A DNA stretch of 64,000 nucleotides from Candidatus Moraniibacteriota bacterium (GTDB taxonomy: Bacteria; Patescibacteriota; Minisyncoccia; Moranbacterales; JAPLXC01), in contig JAPLXC010000007.1 in assembly GCA_026396275.1 (NCBI GenBank), positions 37,084-101,083 on the forward strand, in the 5' to 3' direction. Numbering within the stretch: the first letter of the stretch is position 1; each line of letters begins with the position of its first letter. A program made the translations under genes and the position numbers. Below, piece after piece: positions 2,653-60,238 of the stretch. The notes under the pieces are model-generated. The model was given only the letters and a program-made list of their open reading frames with translations, was not told where the DNA came from and ran no database searches.

Positions 2653-5502
2653 TTATAAATACTTCGCTGTCCAGCTTTTTTTGCATTTCTTTAATTTATC
2701 AGGCGTTCCTTCATAGACAATTTCTCCGCCTTTTTCTCCCCCGTCCGGCCCCAGTTCAATCACCCAATCGGCATTGCGGACAACGTCAAGATTGTGCTCC
2801 ACCACCAGAACCGTGTTGCCTCTTTCCACCAGCGCGTCCAAAACGCTAAGAAGGCGTTTAGTATCATCAAAGTGGAGTCCGACCGTGGGCTCATCCAGAA
2901 TATAAAGAGTTTTTCCGGTAGATTTTCTCGCCAGTTCGGCCGCCAGCTTGATCCGCTGCGCTTCCCCGCCGGAAAGATTGGTGGCGCTTTGGCCCAGCTT
3001 GAGATATCCCAGTCCCACTTTCTCCATTATCTCCAGCTTTTCGGCAATAAGCGGATAATCGCTGAAAAAGTTAAGGGCAAAACTTACATCCATATCCAAC
3101 ACTTCAGCAATATTGAACCCCCTGAACTCAACATCCAGGGTCTTTTTGCTGTACCGAGTGCCATCGCAGGCCTCGCACTTGATGTACATGTCCGGCAAAA
3201 GATACATTTCAATTTTATTCATTCCCTCTCCCTGGCAGACCTCGCAGCGCCCGCCTTTCATATTAAAACTGAACCGGCTGGCGGCGTAACCCCGAGAGCG
3301 AGCTTCTTCCGTTCCGGCAAAGAGGTCGCGAATTTGAGAAAACACACCGGTGTAGGTGGCGGCATTGGAGCGGGGAGTTCTTCCGATCGGGCTCTGATCA
3401 ACACTGATTACTTTATCAATGGCGCTTATTCCCTGTACGTCTTTATGCTTTCCTGGCTCATCTTTGGCCTTATAGAAATAACGGGCAAGAGCTTTAGCTA
3501 GAATATCTTGAACCAGGGTTGATTTTCCCGATCCCGAGACCCCGCAGATAACCACAAATTTTTCCAATGGAATTTTAACATCAATGTTTTTGAGATTGTG
3601 CTCGCTAGCCTTAATGACTTCAAGTGTTTTTTTGCTTCCTTTCCGATAATCTTCTTTTTCGCAGACCTTCTTTCTTCCGACCAAATAAGCAGCGGTAAGA
3701 GTTTTCGATTGGAGAAGTTTATCTAGTGTTCCCTCAAACACTACGGTCCCCCCATTTTCTCCTGCTCCCGGCCCCATATCAATAATCCAGTCGGCGGCGC
3801 GAATGATGTTTTCGTCATGTTCCACAATCAGCAAGGAATTGCCAGCGTCCCGCAGTGACTTCATAGTCGCCACCAATTTGTCGGTATCGCGGTTATGAAG
3901 TCCGATGGATGGCTCGTCTAAAATATAAGTAATTCCCATGAGACGAGAATTTATTTGCGCTGCGAGGCGAATTCTTTGGGCTTCTCCGCCGGAAATCGTC
4001 TGGGCGCTTCGCGCCAAATTCAGATACTCCAAACCGACATTTTCCAGCGACTCTAGTCGTCTTATCATTTCACGAACCAAGGGCTTGGCAATTTTTCTTT
4101 CCCGATTTTCAGCTTTCCACTGATTACTGTTTGCCAAAAAACGCTTAAGCCGCACCATGTCAAGATTTACTACTTCATCAATCGAACGTTCATCAATAAG
4201 AACAGAAAGATACACTTTTCTTAAGCGTTTTCCTTCGCAGATAGGGCACTGCTGGGAAACCATGTACTTTTCCATTTCGGCTTTCAGAAAATCAGATTTC
4301 GTTTCTTGGTATTTTCTCTCCAGGCCGGGAATAACTCCTTCAAATGGGATCAGAACTGAAGAAACTCCTCCTAAATCGTACTCCCTTCGTTCGGCAATCA
4401 GCTCATCCTTGTCTCCAAAAAGAATGATATCCAGATGCTTGGAAGAAAGCTTTTTCACAGGAACATTGACGGAAAAGCCATATATTTTCGCCAAGGATTT
4501 TAAAACGGAGAGATGATTCGTCTGGCTGTTCATTTTTCCTCCGGCTTTGCTCCAGGGCTGAATAGCTCCTTCGGAAAGTGACAGATTTTTATTGGGAATA
4601 ATTAGATCCGGGTTTATCTTGAGCACAAATCCCAATCCGGAACATTGCAGACAGGCCCCTTCCGGGTTGTTAAAAGAAAAGTGGCGAGGAGTGAGTTCCC
4701 GCAGCGCAGTGCCGCACTGCCGGCAAAGAAAGTCCTGATTGTAAGTTTTTTCTTTACTGTTATCAATTACAACAAGAGTTGATCCCTTTCCCAGTTTCAT
4801 AGCCGTTTCAATCGAATCCACGATTCGCTCCCGATCCGGATTTTTTCGGTCAAGGATAATTCTATCGACCACAATCTCGATATCAGCAGGAATTTTATCA
4901 CTGGCAATCAGCAAGGCCTCAGGTGCTCCCATCACTTTTTTGTTAAAGCGCACTCGGGCATAACCGGCTTGTTGAATACCGCGCAGTATCTCTTTGGAAT
5001 TTTTATTTTTGTCCAATGGTTTAGCTAAAATCATAATGTGGCTCCGGTGGGGCAGCGGCAGAATCTCGTCCAGAATTTCCTGATTGCTTTTTTTCTGCAT
5101 CAGCGTTCCGCACTCGGGGCAATGGGGTTTTCCGATTTTGGCAAAAAGAATTCGCAGATAATCGTAAATTTCCGTGAGCGTTCCCACAGTGGAGCGCGGG
5201 CTGCGGCTGATTGACCGCTGATCAATGGCAATGGTGGGGCTCAGGTTCTCGATCTTATCAACATCGGGCTTGACGGAGGCATCCAAAAAATTGCGCGCGT
5301 AAGAAGAAATCCCTTCCATATAGCGGCGATTGCCTTCGGTAAAAATTGTGTCGAAAGCCAAAGAGGATTTTCCCGAACCGGAAAGTCCTGTGATTATTAC
5401 CAGTTTGTCGCGGGGAATGTCGACATCAATATTCTTCAGGTTGTTCACCCGCGCACCCCGAACCAGAATTTTGTCCCTTTGGCTTGAACTTTTTTTTGCC
5501 AT
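2653..5502 (-). CDS. uvrA: excinuclease ABC subunit A
   Basis: 949 aa, two ABC ATPase modules ([26 protein letters not shown]), zinc-finger cysteines, LSGGE signature x2. Confidence 0.95.
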
Positions 5503-6036
5503 TTGAGAGGAAAGTACACCCCCACATCAATTCCAGGAAAACCCGAGATAATTTAAAGTCATAAGTCGAAGCCGCTTATCGGCTTTAGTAATCGATTACT
5601 AAAGGTCTTTATAAGAATTGGTGTGGAGGTAAATAAATCACGCTAATTGTAAATGGTAAAGGATTTTTAGGGATTTGTAAAGACCTGAATTCCGGACATA
5701 GACAAGTTACGTCCAAATAAATAATATTAACCCCGGAGCAAGCTCTGGACTTTATTTGCGCAGTTCCGCTGCAGCTTGAGAGAAGAAGAAAGCAATCGAG
5801 AGCGAATTAGATCAGATGAGACTCAAACTTCAGCAACTTAAAGTCATTTTTGACACGATTACAGTTCCAACTCAGCAATGAGCTACCCGTCCAGGCAGGA
5901 GTAATAAGTTCAAACTTATCTCCTGCTTTTTTATTTCTAAATCAGTTTGTAGTTTACTTTTCTAGCTATGGCTAGAAAAGTAAACTAATCGCGGATTGGA
6001 AGTTATTAATAAAATTAATTATGCTATAATTTCCTT

Positions 6037-8933: not shown

Positions 8934-9941
8934 CTATCCTTTGGCTTTCTGGATAACGCTTTTTTCTACGTCTTTGATAATTTTCGGATTTTCTTTCAGG
9001 AACTGCTTGGCATTTTCCCTTCCGGTCCCCAGTTTTACTCCTTCAAACATATAAGAATTTCCTGTTTTTTTAATTATTTCGTATTTCACTCCGGTATCAA
9101 CCAGATCCCCCGTTTGGGAAATTCCTTCATTATACATAATATCAAATTCGGTTGTTCTGAATGGAGGAGCTACTTTATTTTTCACCACTTTGGCTTTAAC
9201 GCGGTTGCCCACTACTTCATCCCCTTTTTTGATTTGGGCCGAGCGCCTTACTTCGATCCGGACTGATGAATAAAATTTCAGGGCTTGCCCGCCGGTAGTT
9301 GTTTCTGGATTGCCGAACATTATGCCGATCTTCATCCGGATTTGATTAATAAAAATTACAAGTGTATTTGATTTAGCGATAATGGCGGTTAGTTTGCGAA
9401 GGGCTTGGGACATGAGGCGTGCTTGTCTTCCAATGTGCAGGTCACCCATCTCTCCTTCAATTTCAGCCCGCGGGACCAGAGCCGCTACCGAGTCAATCAC
9501 TATCACATCCACCGCGCCGGAACGGACCAGGGTTTCCACGATATCCAACGCCTGCTCTCCGGTATCCGGCTGGGATATCAAAAGATCGTTAATCTCCACT
9601 CCGATCTTTTTCGCGTATTCCGGATCCAGCGCGTGCTCTGCATCAATAAAAGCTGCCGCTCCGTCCGCTTTTTGGGCATTAGCAATAATGTGAAGAGCGA
9701 GAGTTGTTTTTCCCGACGACTCCGGCCCGTAAATTTCAATTACTCGTCCCCGGGGAACTCCCCCGATTCCCAATGCAATATCCAAGGATATTGAGCCGGT
9801 AGGAATGGCTTCCACATCCACTTTGCGGGCGTCACCCAATTTCATAATCATTCCCTCCCCGAATTTTTCCTTAATTTCCTCCATTACCTTGTCAACTTCT
9901 TTTTCCAAGCCCCTATCATGAATTTTTTGTCCTTTTGGCAT
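8934..9941 (-). CDS. recA: recombinase RecA
   Basis: [13 protein letters not shown] Walker A, full-length RecA conservation. Confidence 0.95.
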
Positions 9942-18841: not shown

Positions 18842-19423
18842 TTACCCCAAAACAACTTTCAACAGTTCCGGAAATTCTTCTGTTCCCATATCACCCAATG
18901 TATAATGCCCCTTACTCTTAAGCTCAATTATTTTGCCATCTAAAACCTTATGGTAAATTTGAAGGCTTTTTTTGCCATCCTCTTCCTCGTCATCAGCGGT
19001 AAACATGATAATCTCTCCAATCCTATCTTTAATTTTCTCGTCTATTGGATAGACATAGAAAGCTTCCCTAAATTTATCGCCCGCGTCAGGAATTTTCCAG
19101 GGAGCTACCAGTATTAATTTTCTTATTTTCTGTCTTGTTTCACCCAGCCAGCGCACCAAAAAAGCACATCCGCAACTATGTCCAATTAAAATCGTATTTT
19201 CCGTAACTTCATATTTTTCAAATTCTTTTTTGAATTTTTCATAATCCGGCGCCCAGGGTTCAGGCAAAAGCGGAGTTTCTGTCTTTATTCCTTTGGCAAT
19301 TAATTTTTCCTTAATCCACGGAATCCAATGTTTGTCATATGTCCGCGTCTGCGGATCCATTGCTTTCTCTTTGTCCGAGGGACACCCATGAATTATTATG
19401 CAATTTATTTGTGACTGATCCAT
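18842..19423 (-). CDS. alpha/beta hydrolase, YdeN/RBBP9-like serine hydrolase family
   Basis: IIIHGCPS ... LIGHSCGC nucleophile elbow, about 190 aa typical of the family. Confidence 0.6.
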   Translation of the reverse strand: MDQSQINCIIIHGCPSDKEKAMDPQTRTYDKHWIPWIKEKLIAKGIKTETPLLPEPWAPDYEKFKKEFEKYEVTENTILIGHSCGCAFLVRWLGETRQKIRKLILVAPWKIPDAGDKFREAFYVYPIDEKIKDRIGEIIMFTADDEEEDGKKSLQIYHKVLDGKIIELKSKGHYTLGDMGTEEFPELLKVVLG

Positions 19424-25789: not shown

Positions 25790-26107
25790 TTACTTAATCC
25801 CGCATGGGGGATTCTTCTTATTTCGGATGTCTTTTTCAATCTTCAATCGATCTTCTAGAGAATACTTATCGGTTGGCATCCATTTAACTGCGACAGAATA
25901 ACCACCGTGTTTATCCCAACATGGTTTTCTTTCATGTGTCAGCAACCTCGTTCCCGTTTCACCGGATTGTCCAACATCAATAACTGAGTATATCACATTG
26001 AGGATTACGTAAATTGCAGCTCTATCAATCTTAATCTTACCAATTTTATAAGGTCCATCGAAATTATAACCTGCGATTGTAACCATTGGACTTAATTTTC
26101 TAGCCAA
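25790..26107 (-). CDS. hypothetical protein, possible GIY-YIG-like nuclease fold
   Basis: AAIYVILNVIYSVIDVGQSGETGTRLLTHE resembles GIY...YIG...R..H pattern; weak. Confidence 0.35.
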   Translation of the reverse strand: MARKLSPMVTIAGYNFDGPYKIGKIKIDRAAIYVILNVIYSVIDVGQSGETGTRLLTHERKPCWDKHGGYSVAVKWMPTDKYSLEDRLKIEKDIRNKKNPPCGIK

Positions 26108-26238
26108 CTTTTCGGCTGGATTAATAATTATTTAAACCTTAGGGAAATACCGACCTATTTCCCATAGGCACCTGTGGATAACTTGACCTTGTTTAGGTTT
26201 TCTTTAGGTATTATAATATAAGTAGTAAAAAAGTCAAT

Positions 26239-27771
26239 ATGATCTCAAAAAGATTATCAAAAAAACAAAAGGAAGTTCTTGATTTTATTACCGCTTTTCA
26301 ACAAAAGCGCGAGTATTCCCCTTCCCTAGAAGAAATCGCTAAACATTTCAATATTGCAATTCCCACTGCTCACCAACATGTGCAGGTATTAAAAAGAAAA
26401 GGATTTATAAGCGCAAGAAAGGGGGAAAAACGATCTATCTCAGTAAAAGAAAAAGCTTCAATGGTACAAGTCCCGCTGCTTGGTGTTATTACTGCTGGCC
26501 AGCCGATTGAAGCGATAGAAAATAAAGAGACAATTGCTGTACCACAAAATAAACTCTCCCATTCCGGAGAATTTTATGCTTTACGAGTTTTGGGCAATAG
26601 CATGATTGATGAAAATATAAAAGACGGCGATATTGTTTTAGTAAAAAAACAAGAAGTTGCAGAAAATGGACAAAAAGTCGTTGCTTTAATTGATAACTAT
26701 GAAGCAACACTGAAAAAATTTTATAAGGAAAGAGGACACATTCGGTTGCAACCAGCTAATAAGAACATTGAACCAATAATTATAAAAAGGGATAGAGAAC
26801 TAACTATTCAGGGCATTGTAATAGATGTAATTAAAAATGAAGAGGAATTGCAAGCGGAAGAAATTTTAACTGCAGGAAAGGTTAAAAGACACTTAAAACT
26901 TCCTCTTAATAAAATTATTTTAGGAGACGCTGTTAGAGAATTAAGAAAATTACCGGATGAAAGTTGCGATATTATTATTATCGACCCGCCTTATAATATC
27001 GGAAAGGATTTCGGAAATAATATTGATAAAAGAGAATTAAGCGAATATATTGAATGGAGCAAAAAATGGATTAATGAATCTATAAGAGTAATGAAATCAA
27101 CTGGTACAATGTTTATTTACGGATTTAGTGAAATTTTAGCGTACTTGTCAGTTGAAATTCCTATAAATAAGCGATGGCTCATTTGGCACTATACTAACAA
27201 AAATGTTGCATCTTTAAATTTTTGGCAAAGAAGCCACGAAGCAATTATTTGCGCCTGGAAAGAAAAACCAATTTTCAACCGGGACGAAGTGAGAGAGCCA
27301 TATACTGAAGGATTTCTAAACGGCGCCGCTGGAAAAGTACGTAAAGGAACTATGGGAAGATTCAGCCGAGGTGGACAAGAAACTGTTTATAATGCACACG
27401 AAGGTGGCGCGTTACCAAGAGACGTTATAAAAATACCCGCTCTAGCAGGAGGAGCGGGAATGGTTGAAAGGTGGTTTTTATGCAAAACATGCAATGACGT
27501 TTTTGAGCCACGTGAATTAAAAAAACACCAAAATCATGAGATTATAAAACATCCGACACAAAAACCCTTGGAACTTTCAAAAAAACTTATAAAATCAGCC
27601 TCCTCAAGCAAAGAAGGCGTTATTTTGGTACCATTCGTCGGCAGCGGTTCAGAATGCGTCGCAGCCAAAGAACTTGGTAAAAATTATCTTGGTTTTGAAT
27701 TAAACCCAGATTATGTAAAGTTGGCCGAAGAGTGGTTAAAATCTACAAAGACTGCTCCTAAGTTATTTTAA
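26239..27771 (+). CDS. LexA-like repressor (wHTH + S24 peptidase) fused to N6/N4 DNA methyltransferase (beta class, DPPY then FxGxG)
   Basis: N-term: KQKEVLDFI...VPLLGVITAGQP (Ala-Gly site), GNSM catalytic Ser, VVALIDNYEATLKKF catalytic Lys; C-term: IIIDPPYNIGKDF (motif IV) and VPFVGSGSECVAAKELGKNYLGFEL (motif I). Confidence 0.85.
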   Translation: MISKRLSKKQKEVLDFITAFQQKREYSPSLEEIAKHFNIAIPTAHQHVQVLKRKGFISARKGEKRSISVKEKASMVQVPLLGVITAGQPIEAIENKETIAVPQNKLSHSGEFYALRVLGNSMIDENIKDGDIVLVKKQEVAENGQKVVALIDNYEATLKKFYKERGHIRLQPANKNIEPIIIKRDRELTIQGIVIDVIKNEEELQAEEILTAGKVKRHLKLPLNKIILGDAVRELRKLPDESCDIIIIDPPYNIGKDFGNNIDKRELSEYIEWSKKWINESIRVMKSTGTMFIYGFSEILAYLSVEIPINKRWLIWHYTNKNVASLNFWQRSHEAIICAWKEKPIFNRDEVREPYTEGFLNGAAGKVRKGTMGRFSRGGQETVYNAHEGGALPRDVIKIPALAGGAGMVERWFLCKTCNDVFEPRELKKHQNHEIIKHPTQKPLELSKKLIKSASSSKEGVILVPFVGSGSECVAAKELGKNYLGFELNPDYVKLAEEWLKSTKTAPKLF

Positions 27772-28470
27772 TTTTGAATCAATTTCTTCTTTCTTTTGTT
27801 CAAAAATGTAGGGCTCAAAAATAACAAAGCCATTCGAGAATACACGAAGCATTTTTGTGTCTAGATAGTTTTTCTTAAAAGTAAGATATGATTTTAAAAA
27901 TCCCGTCCCTCTTTTCTTTTTAGGATGCAAAATGGTTTTAAGATCAGGTACTTCATAGCGGATTGGAATTGTTATGCCCGGAATCGGCTCTTTCGGCTTA
28001 TGACTACGCCCCATTACACCACTATTTGATTTCTTCTTTACATCATAATTAATAACTAATTCCCTATATTGTACCTGAATGTCAGCCCCTTTATGATCAA
28101 GTTCCTCTGACATATTGACCGTATTTTTTCCAAATACTGACTCGGCAACATATCCTGCATGCATTTGAGTAATAAGCCCTGCCCATGTCCTATATATACG
28201 CGCCTCGATTCCTTTCTTAAAACAACTAGGACACATCCCAATTTTCTTTCGAAACTCGCTGAGTTTTTTTCTATTTTCCCTTCTATAAATATCATAGAAG
28301 GCGTTAAAATCAACAAAGTTCTTTTCATCCCAGTAAATTCGATATAACAGCTTAATAGCTTGAATATTCTTTGGCAGATTCATTTCCACTATTTTAATAG
28401 AACTATACTTTTCTCTGTAAGCACTTAGGTTAACTGTTTTCAAAAAATCACTAAATTTTTGTAGATACAT
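27763..28470 (-). CDS. putative restriction endonuclease partner (PD-(D/E)xK-like), convergent and overlapping with methyltransferase gene
   Basis: GADIQVQYRELVINYDVKKK fits D-x(n)-D-x-K; convergent 9-nt overlap with MTase 3' end as in many type II RM pairs; assignment is inferential. Confidence 0.4.
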   Translation of the reverse strand: MYLQKFSDFLKTVNLSAYREKYSSIKIVEMNLPKNIQAIKLLYRIYWDEKNFVDFNAFYDIYRRENRKKLSEFRKKIGMCPSCFKKGIEARIYRTWAGLITQMHAGYVAESVFGKNTVNMSEELDHKGADIQVQYRELVINYDVKKKSNSGVMGRSHKPKEPIPGITIPIRYEVPDLKTILHPKKKRGTGFLKSYLTFKKNYLDTKMLRVFSNGFVIFEPYIFEQKKEEIDSKLK

Positions 28471-28514: not shown

Positions 28515-29108
28515 TTACAAATTTTTGATTTCCTCTACGATTTCCGGGAAGTGTTCTTGGTTGAAATGCTGGCGGTCTTCAAAAATATGCGCTTTAACAC
28601 TTGGTAAATCTTTCTTATATCTTTCAACTTCATTAAAAGGCACAATTGGATCATCCTTGCTTTGATACAAATGAATTATTGGGCATTGCTTTTCAACTCC
28701 TTCGAGCGATTTTTTAAAAACAAAATCACTAATCTCATGGGTTTCTGAATGTGGCGGAGCTACCAAAAAAAGAGCTTTTATTTTTTTAGGAAATTCGTTT
28801 TCAGATAAATATTTAACCAGAAAGATGCCTCCTTGCGAATGTCCGATTAAAATCGGTTCACTTTCCATAAATGGAAACATTCTTTTAAACCATATTTTCC
28901 ATTCCTCATACCTGGCATTATTTGAATTGGGCATACGGGGCGCAAGCACTTGGAATTCTCCTCCCAATTCCGATTGCAGGTGAATTTTCCAATCTTTTTT
29001 GGGCAGAAATGATTCAATCGTTACTTCCTGATTTTTAAGATCATCCAAAAATTTTTTGTACGAATCAAACGAACTTCCGCCATGTATAATAATAACTTGT
29101 TGTTTCAT
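28515..29108 (-). CDS. alpha/beta hydrolase, YdeN/RBBP9-like (second, divergent paralog)
   Basis: VIIIHGGSS ... LIGHSQGG. Confidence 0.6.
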   Translation of the reverse strand: MKQQVIIIHGGSSFDSYKKFLDDLKNQEVTIESFLPKKDWKIHLQSELGGEFQVLAPRMPNSNNARYEEWKIWFKRMFPFMESEPILIGHSQGGIFLVKYLSENEFPKKIKALFLVAPPHSETHEISDFVFKKSLEGVEKQCPIIHLYQSKDDPIVPFNEVERYKKDLPSVKAHIFEDRQHFNQEHFPEIVEEIKNL

Positions 29109-31105: not shown

Positions 31106-31344
31106 CTAACTTTACATATGTCAATTCATGTTAAAAGTTGGATTGTGGATAAAAGCGGGCAACCGCCTGCCTGCCCGCTTCGCAGTGAGGCGACCAGGCC
31201 TCGTAAAATTGACACCATAACGGGGTAAACAATCCATATCAGACGCTATATTATCCGGTAAAATCACGTGTTCAAAATACCAAACTATATCACCTAGTAA
31301 TTGCGGGTAATTACGAATTTTATGACGCCTTCTTTACGAATCTA

Positions 31345-59386: not shown

Positions 59387-60238
59387 TTATACCATATTTT
59401 TCCTCCTTAACAAAAAGGTAGCTGTGGATAAAATAATTAGCGCTATTGATAATATTTGCCCCAGCGTAAGCCAATTATTTGCCAAAATTGCTCCTTTCTC
59501 CGGCTCGCGGAAAAATTCTATAAAAAATCTAAAAAAACCGTAGCCGAAAAGATATAACATAAAGCATGGAACATGGAACACTTTATTTTTATATTTTATT
59601 CCATTTCTCAATGCCCAAAGAATGGCAAACAGCACTATTCCCTCCAGAAATGCTTCATAAAGTTGCGAAGGGTGGCGCAGCAGTCCCAGTCCATCAGCCG
59701 GAAAGTACATTCCCCACGGCAGATTTGTCGGCACGCCATAGAGCTCGCCGTTTAAGAAATTTCCTATCCGACCGAAAAAGTAGCCGGCGGGAACGGCGGG
59801 AATGACAAAATCGGCCAGCTGCCAAAAATTAAGATTATTTCTTTTGGCGAACACAAGGCCGGCAATTATCACTCCGACAAGCCCGCCAAAGTAGCTCATT
59901 CCGTAAAAACCGGTATACTCAAAGCCCGCAATCTGCAATCCGTAACCCTCTATGCTAAACGGCAAAAAAATTTCCAAAGGATGTTGAAGATAATACGGCA
60001 AACCATAAAAAATAACATAGCCCAGCCGCGCGCCAATAAGTAATCCTATAATCAAATAAATCATTAAATCCGGAATGGAAATTTTATTTGGCGACTCTTT
60101 TATTCTATATTTAAGTAATAAATACACTGTCAGGAAACCCGCTAAATACATAATTGAGTACCACTTAACAGAAAAAGATCCGATTGAAAAAACAATCGGA
60201 TTGATGTGTTCAGGAATATGTTGATACCATTCAAGCAT
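59387..60238 (-). CDS. lgt: prolipoprotein diacylglyceryl transferase
   Basis: GRIGNFLNGELYG signature, multi-TM. Confidence 0.85.
   Translation of the reverse strand: MLEWYQHIPEHINPIVFSIGSFSVKWYSIMYLAGFLTVYLLLKYRIKESPNKISIPDLMIYLIIGLLIGARLGYVIFYGLPYYLQHPLEIFLPFSIEGYGLQIAGFEYTGFYGMSYFGGLVGVIIAGLVFAKRNNLNFWQLADFVIPAVPAGYFFGRIGNFLNGELYGVPTNLPWGMYFPADGLGLLRHPSQLYEAFLEGIVLFAILWALRNGIKYKNKVFHVPCFMLYLFGYGFFRFFIEFFREPEKGAILANNWLTLGQILSIALIILSTATFLLRRKNMV

Follow-up and report, generated by a model that had tools for sequence, protein, structure and literature searches.

Why should a protein that reads as a complete LexA repressor continue, without interruption, into a DNA methyltransferase, and what might such a protein do beside a restriction endonuclease gene? 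The question is raised by a stretch of 64,000 nucleotides from Candidatus Moraniibacteriota bacterium (assembly GCA_026396275.1, contig JAPLXC010000007.1, positions 37,084–101,083 of the forward strand; below, the window, with coordinates counted from its first nucleotide), where the gene for this fusion protein converges with the gene for a TaqI-family endonuclease. The answer towards which we lean is that the two genes constitute a type II restriction–modification (RM) pair whose methyltransferase gene (M, its partner being R) would be repressed by its own product and de-repressed by RecA-stimulated self-cleavage of that product. The two genes and the parts of the fusion are the following.

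26239–27771, plus strand: LexA–methyltransferase fusion gene, 510 amino acids (aa), an uninterrupted open reading frame (ORF)

26248–26433, plus strand: LexA winged-helix DNA-binding domain, residues 4–65, with the recognition helix ...PTAHQHV... and Gln46

26473–26823, plus strand: S24 peptidase/dimerisation domain, residues 79–195, with Ser121 at nucleotides (nt) 26599–26601 and Lys159 at nt 26713–26715

26494–26499, plus strand: predicted self-cleavage bond Ala86–Gly87, by alignment to Ala84–Gly85 of Escherichia coli

26833–26907, plus strand: linker, approximately residues 199–223 (...IKNEEELQAEE...), of low model confidence; the cassette shared with other loci stops here

26908–27768, plus strand: beta-class N6/N4 DNA methyltransferase module, with DPPY at nt 26983–26994 and FVGSGS at nt 27634–27651

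27763–28470, minus strand: gene for a type II restriction endonuclease of the TaqI family, 235 aa, converging on M, with a 9-nt 3' overlap

By profile, motif, and alignment, the N-terminal half of the fusion protein is a LexA, with a winged helix, an S24 domain, the cleavage bond, the catalytic dyad, and the full length of the TIGR00498 model. In Pfam, LexA_DNA_bind (PF01726) is assigned to residues 4–65 (7e-13), Peptidase_S24 to residues 79–195 (1e-30), and N6_N4_Mtase (PF01555) to residues 244–498 (5e-37); with the NCBIfam lexA equivalog TIGR00498 the score is 174.8 bits (cutoff 110.95), and model positions 2–201 of 203 are covered. Over its whole length, the N-terminal segment of 205 residues can be aligned with the LexA structures of Thermotoga maritima (3k2z, 7e-36) and E. 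coli, and the structure–sequence alignment equates Ala86–Gly87, Ser121, and Lys159 of the fusion with Ala84–Gly85, Ser119, and Lys156 of E. coli LexA; the corresponding motifs are TAGQP (at 85), GNSM (at 119), and TLKKF (at 157). All four residues are invariant in 42 aligned close homologues, and their equivalents are invariant in 43 diverse fusions, representatives of 50%-identity clusters that span several Pfam methyltransferase families; the exception to intact cleavage machinery among the loci is L050, where the S24 domain is deleted. The protein is not the stand-alone LexA form of about 200 aa, being 510 aa long with a C-terminal methyltransferase. The first-pass annotation of this DNA had described a complete LexA (winged helix plus S24) followed by an N6/N4 methyltransferase, with an Ala–Gly site and catalytic Ser and Lys, encoded by a 510-aa ORF that converges, with a 9-nt overlap, on a 235-aa one; both ORFs exist as claimed, the domain order is borne out by the Pfam and TIGR00498 searches, and the cleavage residues by the motif positions, the alignment to E. 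coli, and the two sets of homologues.

The methyltransferase module carries DPPY at residue 249, N-terminal to FVGSGS at residue 466, with the target-recognition region between them; this is the order of the beta class, to which the module had been assigned at first sight. It matches the PADLOC model MTase_II (7e-51), and M.MboIIA, M.RsrI, and CcrM are among the solved structures that match it best in sequence. The translation is free of methionine from the end of the LexA part to approximately residue 285, hence the methyltransferase can be made only as the fusion. The 235-aa protein matches Pfam RE_TaqI (PF09573; 3.6e-36, 125.2 bits against a cutoff of 26.1) over model positions 1–219 of 229 and, in addition, the PADLOC model of type II restriction endonucleases, while a sequence search of solved structures returned no match for it. 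Its earlier description as a restriction nuclease holds at the level of the family; the spacing of the putative nuclease motif had been misread as x13 and is x12 (D130-x12-D143-V144-K145), with D130, V144, and K145 conserved in at least 95% of 35 endonuclease homologues. Judged from sequence, the two genes are a type II RM pair, and M and R would share a common specificity. As in the TaqI RM system (R.TaqI/M.TaqI, TCGA), the endonuclease belongs to RE_TaqI; M.TaqI, however, is a gamma-class enzyme with a TaqI_C domain, whereas the methyltransferase of the window is beta-class, with DPPY preceding FxGxG. The observed/expected ratio of TCGA in the window is 0.70, the lowest among the 4-mer palindromes, yet no outlier.

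The fusion is widespread. A search of 5.8 billion protein clusters yields more than 120 clusters (at 90% identity) of three-domain proteins of 505–517 aa, with 72–79% identity and 99% coverage, and a scan of one genome per species yields about 50 full-length copies; the lineages include Moran-, Nealson-, Falkow-, Jorgensen-, and Pacebacteria, among many Patescibacteria. A contig of 921 kb also encodes the fusion–endonuclease pair. In 35 of the approximately 50 copies from the species scan the same TaqI-like gene converges on the fusion gene, with the identical 9-nt overlap in 29 of these loci. The first-pass annotation had allowed that an assembly or frameshift artefact might have joined separate lexA and methyltransferase genes; this is ruled out, its probability being close to nil, by the recurrence of the uninterrupted ORF across more than 120 independent clusters, in approximately 50 genomes that many studies contributed, and on the 921-kb contig; the fusion is real. 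In public databases these proteins are labeled either "transcriptional repressor LexA" or "site-specific DNA-methyltransferase". A phage origin was also considered and is not evident, as the viral contigs of IMG/VR contain two distant partial matches only and no fusion. In 16 of the 35 loci, a 72-aa gene of the HTH_3 (XRE-type) family lies directly upstream of the TaqI-like R gene (e.g., L020 3334–3552, L010 8212–8430); it resembles the gene of a classical controller (C) protein for R. No such gene is present in the window, where a serine hydrolase gene (28515–29108) stands in its place.

The control region upstream of the fusion gene contains the following elements.

26137–26168, no strand assigned: imperfect inverted repeat CCTTAGGGAAATA-N6-TATTTCCCATAGG, with 13-nt arms, 85% complementary, and a 6-nt gap

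26173–26181, plus strand: DnaA-box-like element TGTGGATAA, just upstream of the promoter, a conserved part of the cassette that matches the consensus DnaA box

26189–26194, plus strand: inferred -35 hexamer TTGTTT, by positional alignment with homologous promoters (TTGAyT-17 nt-TATAAT)

26192–26208, plus strand: candidate LexA operator, a direct repeat (TTTAGG-N5-TTTAGG, period 11 bp) placed between the -35 and the -10

26212–26217, plus strand: -10 hexamer TATAAT, read from the sequence and conserved in homologous loci

The homologous loci show a conserved promoter order, namely TGTGGATAA(C), -35 TTGAyT, a direct repeat with an 11-bp period, and -10 TATAAT, and the period-11 repeat is found between -35 and -10 in nearly all of them. 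The repeated unit varies by locus (TTCTA, TTCGG, CTCGG, TTAGG), both copies always switching together, and it covaries with residue 46 of the recognition helix: Phe or Tyr is seen with the TTCTA half-site in 42 of 43 cases, and Glu or Gln with TTCGG, CTCGG, or TTAGG in 12 of 12, although these counts ignore kinship and the cases are phylogenetically non-independent; even so, the two classes of residue segregate fully. The window combines Gln46 with TTAGG; an independent case, protein P0058 on L157, combines an ...SEH... helix with TTCGGG. In the 744 kb of loci, 44 of 46 exact TTCTA-N6-TTCTA sites lie at lexA or lexA–methyltransferase promoters, against about 4 sites expected in total, and the exact operator of the window occurs in its 64 kb a single time. 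Extra operator copies upstream of R, C-like genes, or other neighbours were not found within 6 kb in 74 loci. On this comparative evidence the direct repeat at 26192–26208 is the likely operator, and its position inside the promoter implies autorepression. Direct repeats are known for other LexA lineages: the LexA box of Alphaproteobacteria, GTTC-N7-GTTC, has the same 11-bp spacing, and a paper that cites the Patescibacteria study of Sanchez-Osuna, Barbe, and Erill (2017) does so, along with other references, for the evolution of direct-repeat motifs in LexA lineages. The operator had initially been sought in an inverted repeat at 26153–26186. The inverted repeat exists, although at 26137–26168, and its left arm holds a third TTAGG half-site; as an operator it is rejected in favor of the direct repeat, being absent from homologous promoters.

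The element TGTGGATAA(C) is seen just upstream of -35 at nearly every lexA or lexA–methyltransferase promoter of loci L001–L067. It occurs 61 times in the 744 kb, against about 9 occurrences expected; 38 of the 61 copies are followed by a period-11 repeat, and approximately 42, by inspection, belong to these promoters. Since the element is invariant while the operator and the recognition helix vary, it is probably bound by a different conserved factor, perhaps DnaA. Two further copies of TGTGGATAA are present in the window, at 31144–31152 (upstream of a SoFic gene) and 59423–59431.

What circuit would follow from these parts? The fusion is predicted to bind DNA, with the LexA winged helix contacting TTTAGG-N5-TTTAGG in its own promoter, so that accumulated enzyme would limit its own synthesis. 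RecA-triggered cleavage is to be expected because the Ala–Gly bond and the Ser/Lys dyad are intact and recA is present in the window; on the same basis, conserved cleavage machinery plus recA, the cleavage is predicted to be RecA-dependent, and the system hence coupled to the SOS response. Upon DNA damage, RecA filaments on single-stranded DNA would stimulate self-cleavage at Ala86–Gly87 and split the DNA-binding domain from the S24–methyltransferase part; repression would be lifted and methyltransferase output would rise. Stronger transcription of M would then run into the R gene and interfere with R expression: M points head-on into R, and a scan of the sequence from the M stop codon to 28843 reveals no plus-strand terminator-like sites between them. 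The M:R ratio would probably shift upward, and the net effect would be a damage-induced move to protection, a built-in alleviation of restriction. The benefit might lie in less self-restriction at times when repair synthesis leaves unmethylated sites or when R already cuts the chromosome.

An alternative is a LexA module that is never cleaved in vivo, a stable dimeric autorepressor that replaces a C protein and has no link to DNA damage. Methyltransferases with a fused helix-turn-helix (HTH) region that autoregulate without any cleavage are known (a review of RM regulation cites SsoII and EcoRII), and many relatives of the window system already own a C-like gene for the control of R. One variant, L050 (6001–7167), has the LexA winged helix joined straight to the methyltransferase, i.e., it has lost S24 and kept both other parts, as a cleavage-free repressor could. 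The invariance of Ala–Gly, Ser, and Lys over 43 clusters that are more than 50% diverged points the other way, as it is hard to explain unless cleavage is selected for; moreover, a plain HTH would suffice for autorepression, yet it is the complete LexA that recurs. We therefore consider a permanently uncleaved repressor quite unlikely, and continue to prefer the self-cleaving one.

Whether the LexA part is an accidental passenger of a single RM lineage can be judged from its other associations. The LexA module alone was searched against 1.84 billion representative proteins. Among the 46 closest LexA representatives (at least 46% identity), 36 are proteins of 378–890 aa with LexA at residues 2–200, and the other 10 are, by length, of 201–348 aa; ordinary LexA proteins of about 200 aa become the majority only below approximately 48% identity to the LexA of the window. 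LexA_DNA_bind plus Peptidase_S24 is found in all 43 long representatives scanned, and all families matched by their C-terminal parts are DNA methyltransferases, represented by six Pfam models (some proteins match more than one family, hence the counts overlap).

N6_N4_Mtase: 30 of 43 long LexA representatives

Eco57I-type: 7 of 43, two of them with a TaqI_C domain

D12/Dam-type: 5 of 43

N6_Mtase: 5 of 43

MmeI-type: 4 of 43

C-5 cytosine methylase: 2 of 43

The nucleases differ as well: the variant fusion of L059 adjoins an EcoO109I-family nuclease, those of L055 and L057 adjoin proteins of the His-Me finger/endonuclease VII type, and the convergent partner ORFs of L054 and L058, as well as of L012, L026, L031, and L041, are unannotated. 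The occurrence of LexA on several methyltransferase families with different nucleases argues for selection rather than accident. Comparison between loci shows LexA modules that are 92–93% identical joined to methyltransferase modules that are 30–39% identical; between such loci the homology extends from about 60–100 nt upstream of the start codon to the linker, and the flanks are unrelated. The mobile unit, as delimited by these comparisons, is a cassette of about 0.7 kb that comprises the promoter, LexA, and the conserved linker (...IKNEEELQAEE...). In this respect the interpretation first offered, an SOS-coupled RM module with unusual wiring, is partly supported and understated, since the fusion of the window is one case of a general LexA–methyltransferase architecture. 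We tentatively suggest, with somewhat less confidence than we have in the circuit proposed for the window, that a portable DNA-damage-sensing cassette (DnaA-box-like element, direct-repeat promoter, self-cleaving LexA, and linker) has repeatedly been attached to RM methyltransferases of Patescibacteria; RecA-triggered cleavage of the methyltransferase polypeptide itself would then readjust how modification and restriction are balanced, and the same protein may be the SOS repressor in some genomes.

Further variants are seen at individual loci. L051 (5995–7566) contains the same M–R module, again overlapping by 9 nt, and no LexA, which means that the LexA part was added to an RM module already in existence; the module of L051 is preceded by a 138-aa ORF whose C-terminal sequence looks winged-helix-like by eye. 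In L012 (7544–8197), L026 (7523–8149), L031 (7522–8136), and L041 (7554–8201), another convergent ORF of about 205–217 aa replaces the TaqI-like gene, and the methyltransferase modules are approximately 80% identical to the type that has the TaqI-like partner. No Pfam match was obtained for the three replacement ORFs scanned (L012, L026, and L041); the ORFs of the four loci may belong to another endonuclease family that targets the same site.

Does the fusion also govern the SOS response of its host? In the window, recA lies at 8934–9941 and uvrA at 2653–5502. No TTAGG-type repeat is found upstream of recA, uvrA, or the ftsK–rodZ–recA operon in the 64 kb, which also encode no second LexA, and the fusion loci themselves contain neither recA nor uvrA. 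Elsewhere, among 75 related Patescibacteria-like recA promoters from metagenomes, two have a TTCTA-type box, L106 (3868–3927) and L108 (3832–3895); both carry the TTATCCACA box plus a reversed TTCTA-type repeat (TAGAAC-N5-TAGAAC). Judging by these two promoters of the 75 examined, the clade to which the LexA of the window belongs appears to control recA in some organisms.

These data bear on the possibility that the fusion is a genuine, possibly the sole, SOS master repressor with a genome-wide regulon, the methyltransferase being a passenger inserted in frame behind lexA. The operators of L106 and L108 and the lack of a second LexA in the window agree with it, as do the passage of the TIGR00498 cutoff over the full model length, the sharing of the promoter and operator by the stand-alone relatives of about 200 aa in L062, L065, and L066, and the finding of no genome with two matches in the species-representative scan. 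On the other hand, recA and uvrA of the window lack the repeat, the exact operator occurs at the fusion promoter and nowhere else in the 64 kb, such operators stand at only 2 of the 75 recA promoters and near no other gene within 6 kb in the 74 loci, and the promoter–LexA–linker unit occurs in unrelated contexts before unrelated methyltransferases, which is the behavior of a mobile cassette, not of a housekeeping locus. A master repressor of this kind thus seems unlikely. With the fusion gene as the sole visible target, for this genome over the 64 kb covered, and with the mobility of the cassette, an RM-dedicated circuit is favored over a conventional SOS master regulator. In the recA upstream regions of L112, L141, L146, and L149, arrays of TAGAAC/GTTCTA or TTCGG are seen at 7–8-bp spacing; they resemble LexA half-sites, without the 11-bp period.

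Several observations weigh against an autorepressed, damage-released M gene. L050, with the winged helix and methyltransferase retained in the absence of S24, indicates that cleavage-free autoregulation is viable, and the operator type upstream of recA in L106 and L108 indicates that this LexA clade may be a general SOS repressor in some genomes. The -35 of the window is weak, with no more than 3 of its 6 positions agreeing with the consensus, which explains why the promoter scan made no call for the fusion promoter; a second -35-like sequence, TTGACC, is present at 26183–26188. The covariation of residue 46 with the half-site is weakened by the kinship of the loci. The predicted structure of the fusion is of low confidence (mean predicted local distance difference test, pLDDT, 60.7; predicted template modelling score 0.45) and supports the domain order and a disordered linker only: residues 201–214 of the linker have pLDDT below 50, and the target-recognition region (296–409) is unreliable in the model. 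Finally, cleavage could instead destabilise the S24–methyltransferase fragment, so that methylation would decrease.

Carried further, such destabilisation would make a suicide switch, in which cleavage, after damage or phage-induced RecA activation, exposes degradation signals and the S24–methyltransferase fragment is degraded; as methylation is then no longer maintained, the cell would be killed by the endonuclease, in a manner resembling abortive infection. The cleaved N-terminal fragment would end in ...ITA, or in ...IAA in most relatives, which is similar to the end that ClpX recognises on cleaved E. coli LexA, and defence genes are among the neighbours (a KAP-family NTPase, weakly PifA-like, and SoFic). 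No sign of a degradation signal, however, is seen on the fragment that bears the methyltransferase; de-repression would simultaneously raise the synthesis of new fusion; and killing would be slow, as old methylation persists until replication dilutes it. A suicide switch is thus very improbable, and damage-induced protection remains our preferred reading. As to the neighbourhood, the RM pair is situated in a low-GC stretch (GC 0.29–0.38 at 22–32 kb vs. about 0.42 elsewhere in the window), together with a RusA-like gene, the KAP-family NTPase, and the SoFic homologue, with rpoB and rpoC a few kb away. On the 921-kb contig (L157 7600–12300) the pair again lies beside rpoB/rpoC, with Abi_alpha and NUDIX genes. 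The low-GC island at rpoB/rpoC may be a defence-island hotspot.

The closest functional parallels are methyltransferases such as M.SsoII/M.Ecl18kI, M.EcoRII, M.MspI, and M.ScrFIA, which repress their own promoter via a fused N-terminal DNA-binding region. The window system shares with the SsoII type an N-terminal DNA-binding module on an RM methyltransferase, its own promoter as the predicted target, and a self-limiting M; the differences are a complete LexA with a predicted self-cleaving S24 domain instead of a simple HTH, an operator that is a direct repeat with an 11-bp period, M and R that are convergent and overlapping rather than divergent, and the presence of the same cassette on methyltransferases matching six Pfam models. 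The likeness is one of logic only, the LexA domain being presumably not homologous to the SsoII N-terminal region. The review that cites the autoregulation of SsoII and EcoRII also treats the control of R by C proteins, and it mentions LexA only in connection with toxin–antitoxin genes.

Compared with C-protein systems, the related loci that have the 72-aa HTH_3 gene likewise use a small dedicated transcription factor to time R versus M; in contrast, the window contains no C-like gene, and the LexA module would control M instead of R and is covalently joined to the M protein. Type II RM systems controlled by C proteins include PvuII, BamHI, AhdI, and Esp1396I. Similar to canonical LexA (E. coli, T. 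maritima), the fusion shows the full-length TIGR00498 match, the cleavage bond and dyad, and a candidate operator in its own promoter, and, similar to the LexA of Alphaproteobacteria, this operator is a direct-repeat box with 11-bp spacing; unlike canonical LexA, it has a C-terminal DNA methyltransferase of about 300 aa, has no operator at recA or uvrA of the window, and travels with RM genes. Other systems tune a defence or toxin output by a DNA-damage signal, as the fusion would: CapH/CapP controls CBASS, ClpXP alleviates type I restriction, and symE and tisB are LexA-repressed toxins. These rely on separate regulators or on proteolysis of a nuclease subunit, while here the sensor would reside in the methyltransferase polypeptide.

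RM systems must keep methylation ahead of cleavage, which they are known to achieve by C proteins, by methyltransferases with a simple fused HTH, by antisense RNAs, or, for type I nucleases, by proteolysis. To these a LexA that cleaves itself within a methyltransferase would add a new solution: the DNA-damage state would be read directly, with the SOS sensor physically merged with the RM system. The LexA cassette on many unrelated methyltransferases suggests a previously undescribed tie between RM and DNA damage: no description of a LexA–methyltransferase fusion was found in the full-text literature searched, the coverage of which does not extend to the 2017 study of the Patescibacteria SOS network by Sanchez-Osuna, Barbe, and Erill. 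One paper on a "LexA-like plus methyltransferase" combination was rejected as a precedent, as it concerns separate phage repressor genes. The Patescibacteria genes annotated as "transcriptional repressor LexA" are mostly RM methyltransferases, which affects both reconstructions of SOS regulons and censuses of defence systems; the way in which helix residue 46 and the operator half-site vary together offers a ready-made candidate specificity code. The system is small, comprising two genes and a 60-bp control region.

A second promoter faces away from the fusion gene.

26210–26237, minus strand: sigma-70-like promoter TTGACT-16-TATAAT, with 11 of 12 matches in the promoter scan

The -10 hexamers of the two promoters overlap, and the reverse -35 directly adjoins the start codon of the fusion. 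The sequence AGTCAA is found at most 30 nt from the ATG in 24 of 64 loci, with a matching reverse-strand -10 in all 24. A transcript, divergent or antisense, may start from this promoter and cross the operator. Ahead of the fusion promoter lies a divergent 105-aa ORF with a TTG start (25790–26107, minus strand), which has no match in Pfam, NCBIfam, or PADLOC; the equivalent flank is unconserved in other loci.

Two further observations concern the wider window. A 22-nt perfect palindrome, CTTTAGTAATCGATTACTAAAG, is located at 5583–5604, upstream of uvrA by about 100 nt; it has no second copy in the window and contains a central TCGA and TTTAG half-sites similar to the LexA half-site. A distance of 9 kb separates two paralogous genes of the Ser_hydrolase family (PF06821), at 18842–19423 and 28515–29108; the latter is directly upstream of R and co-oriented with it, hence R may be co-transcribed with this gene.

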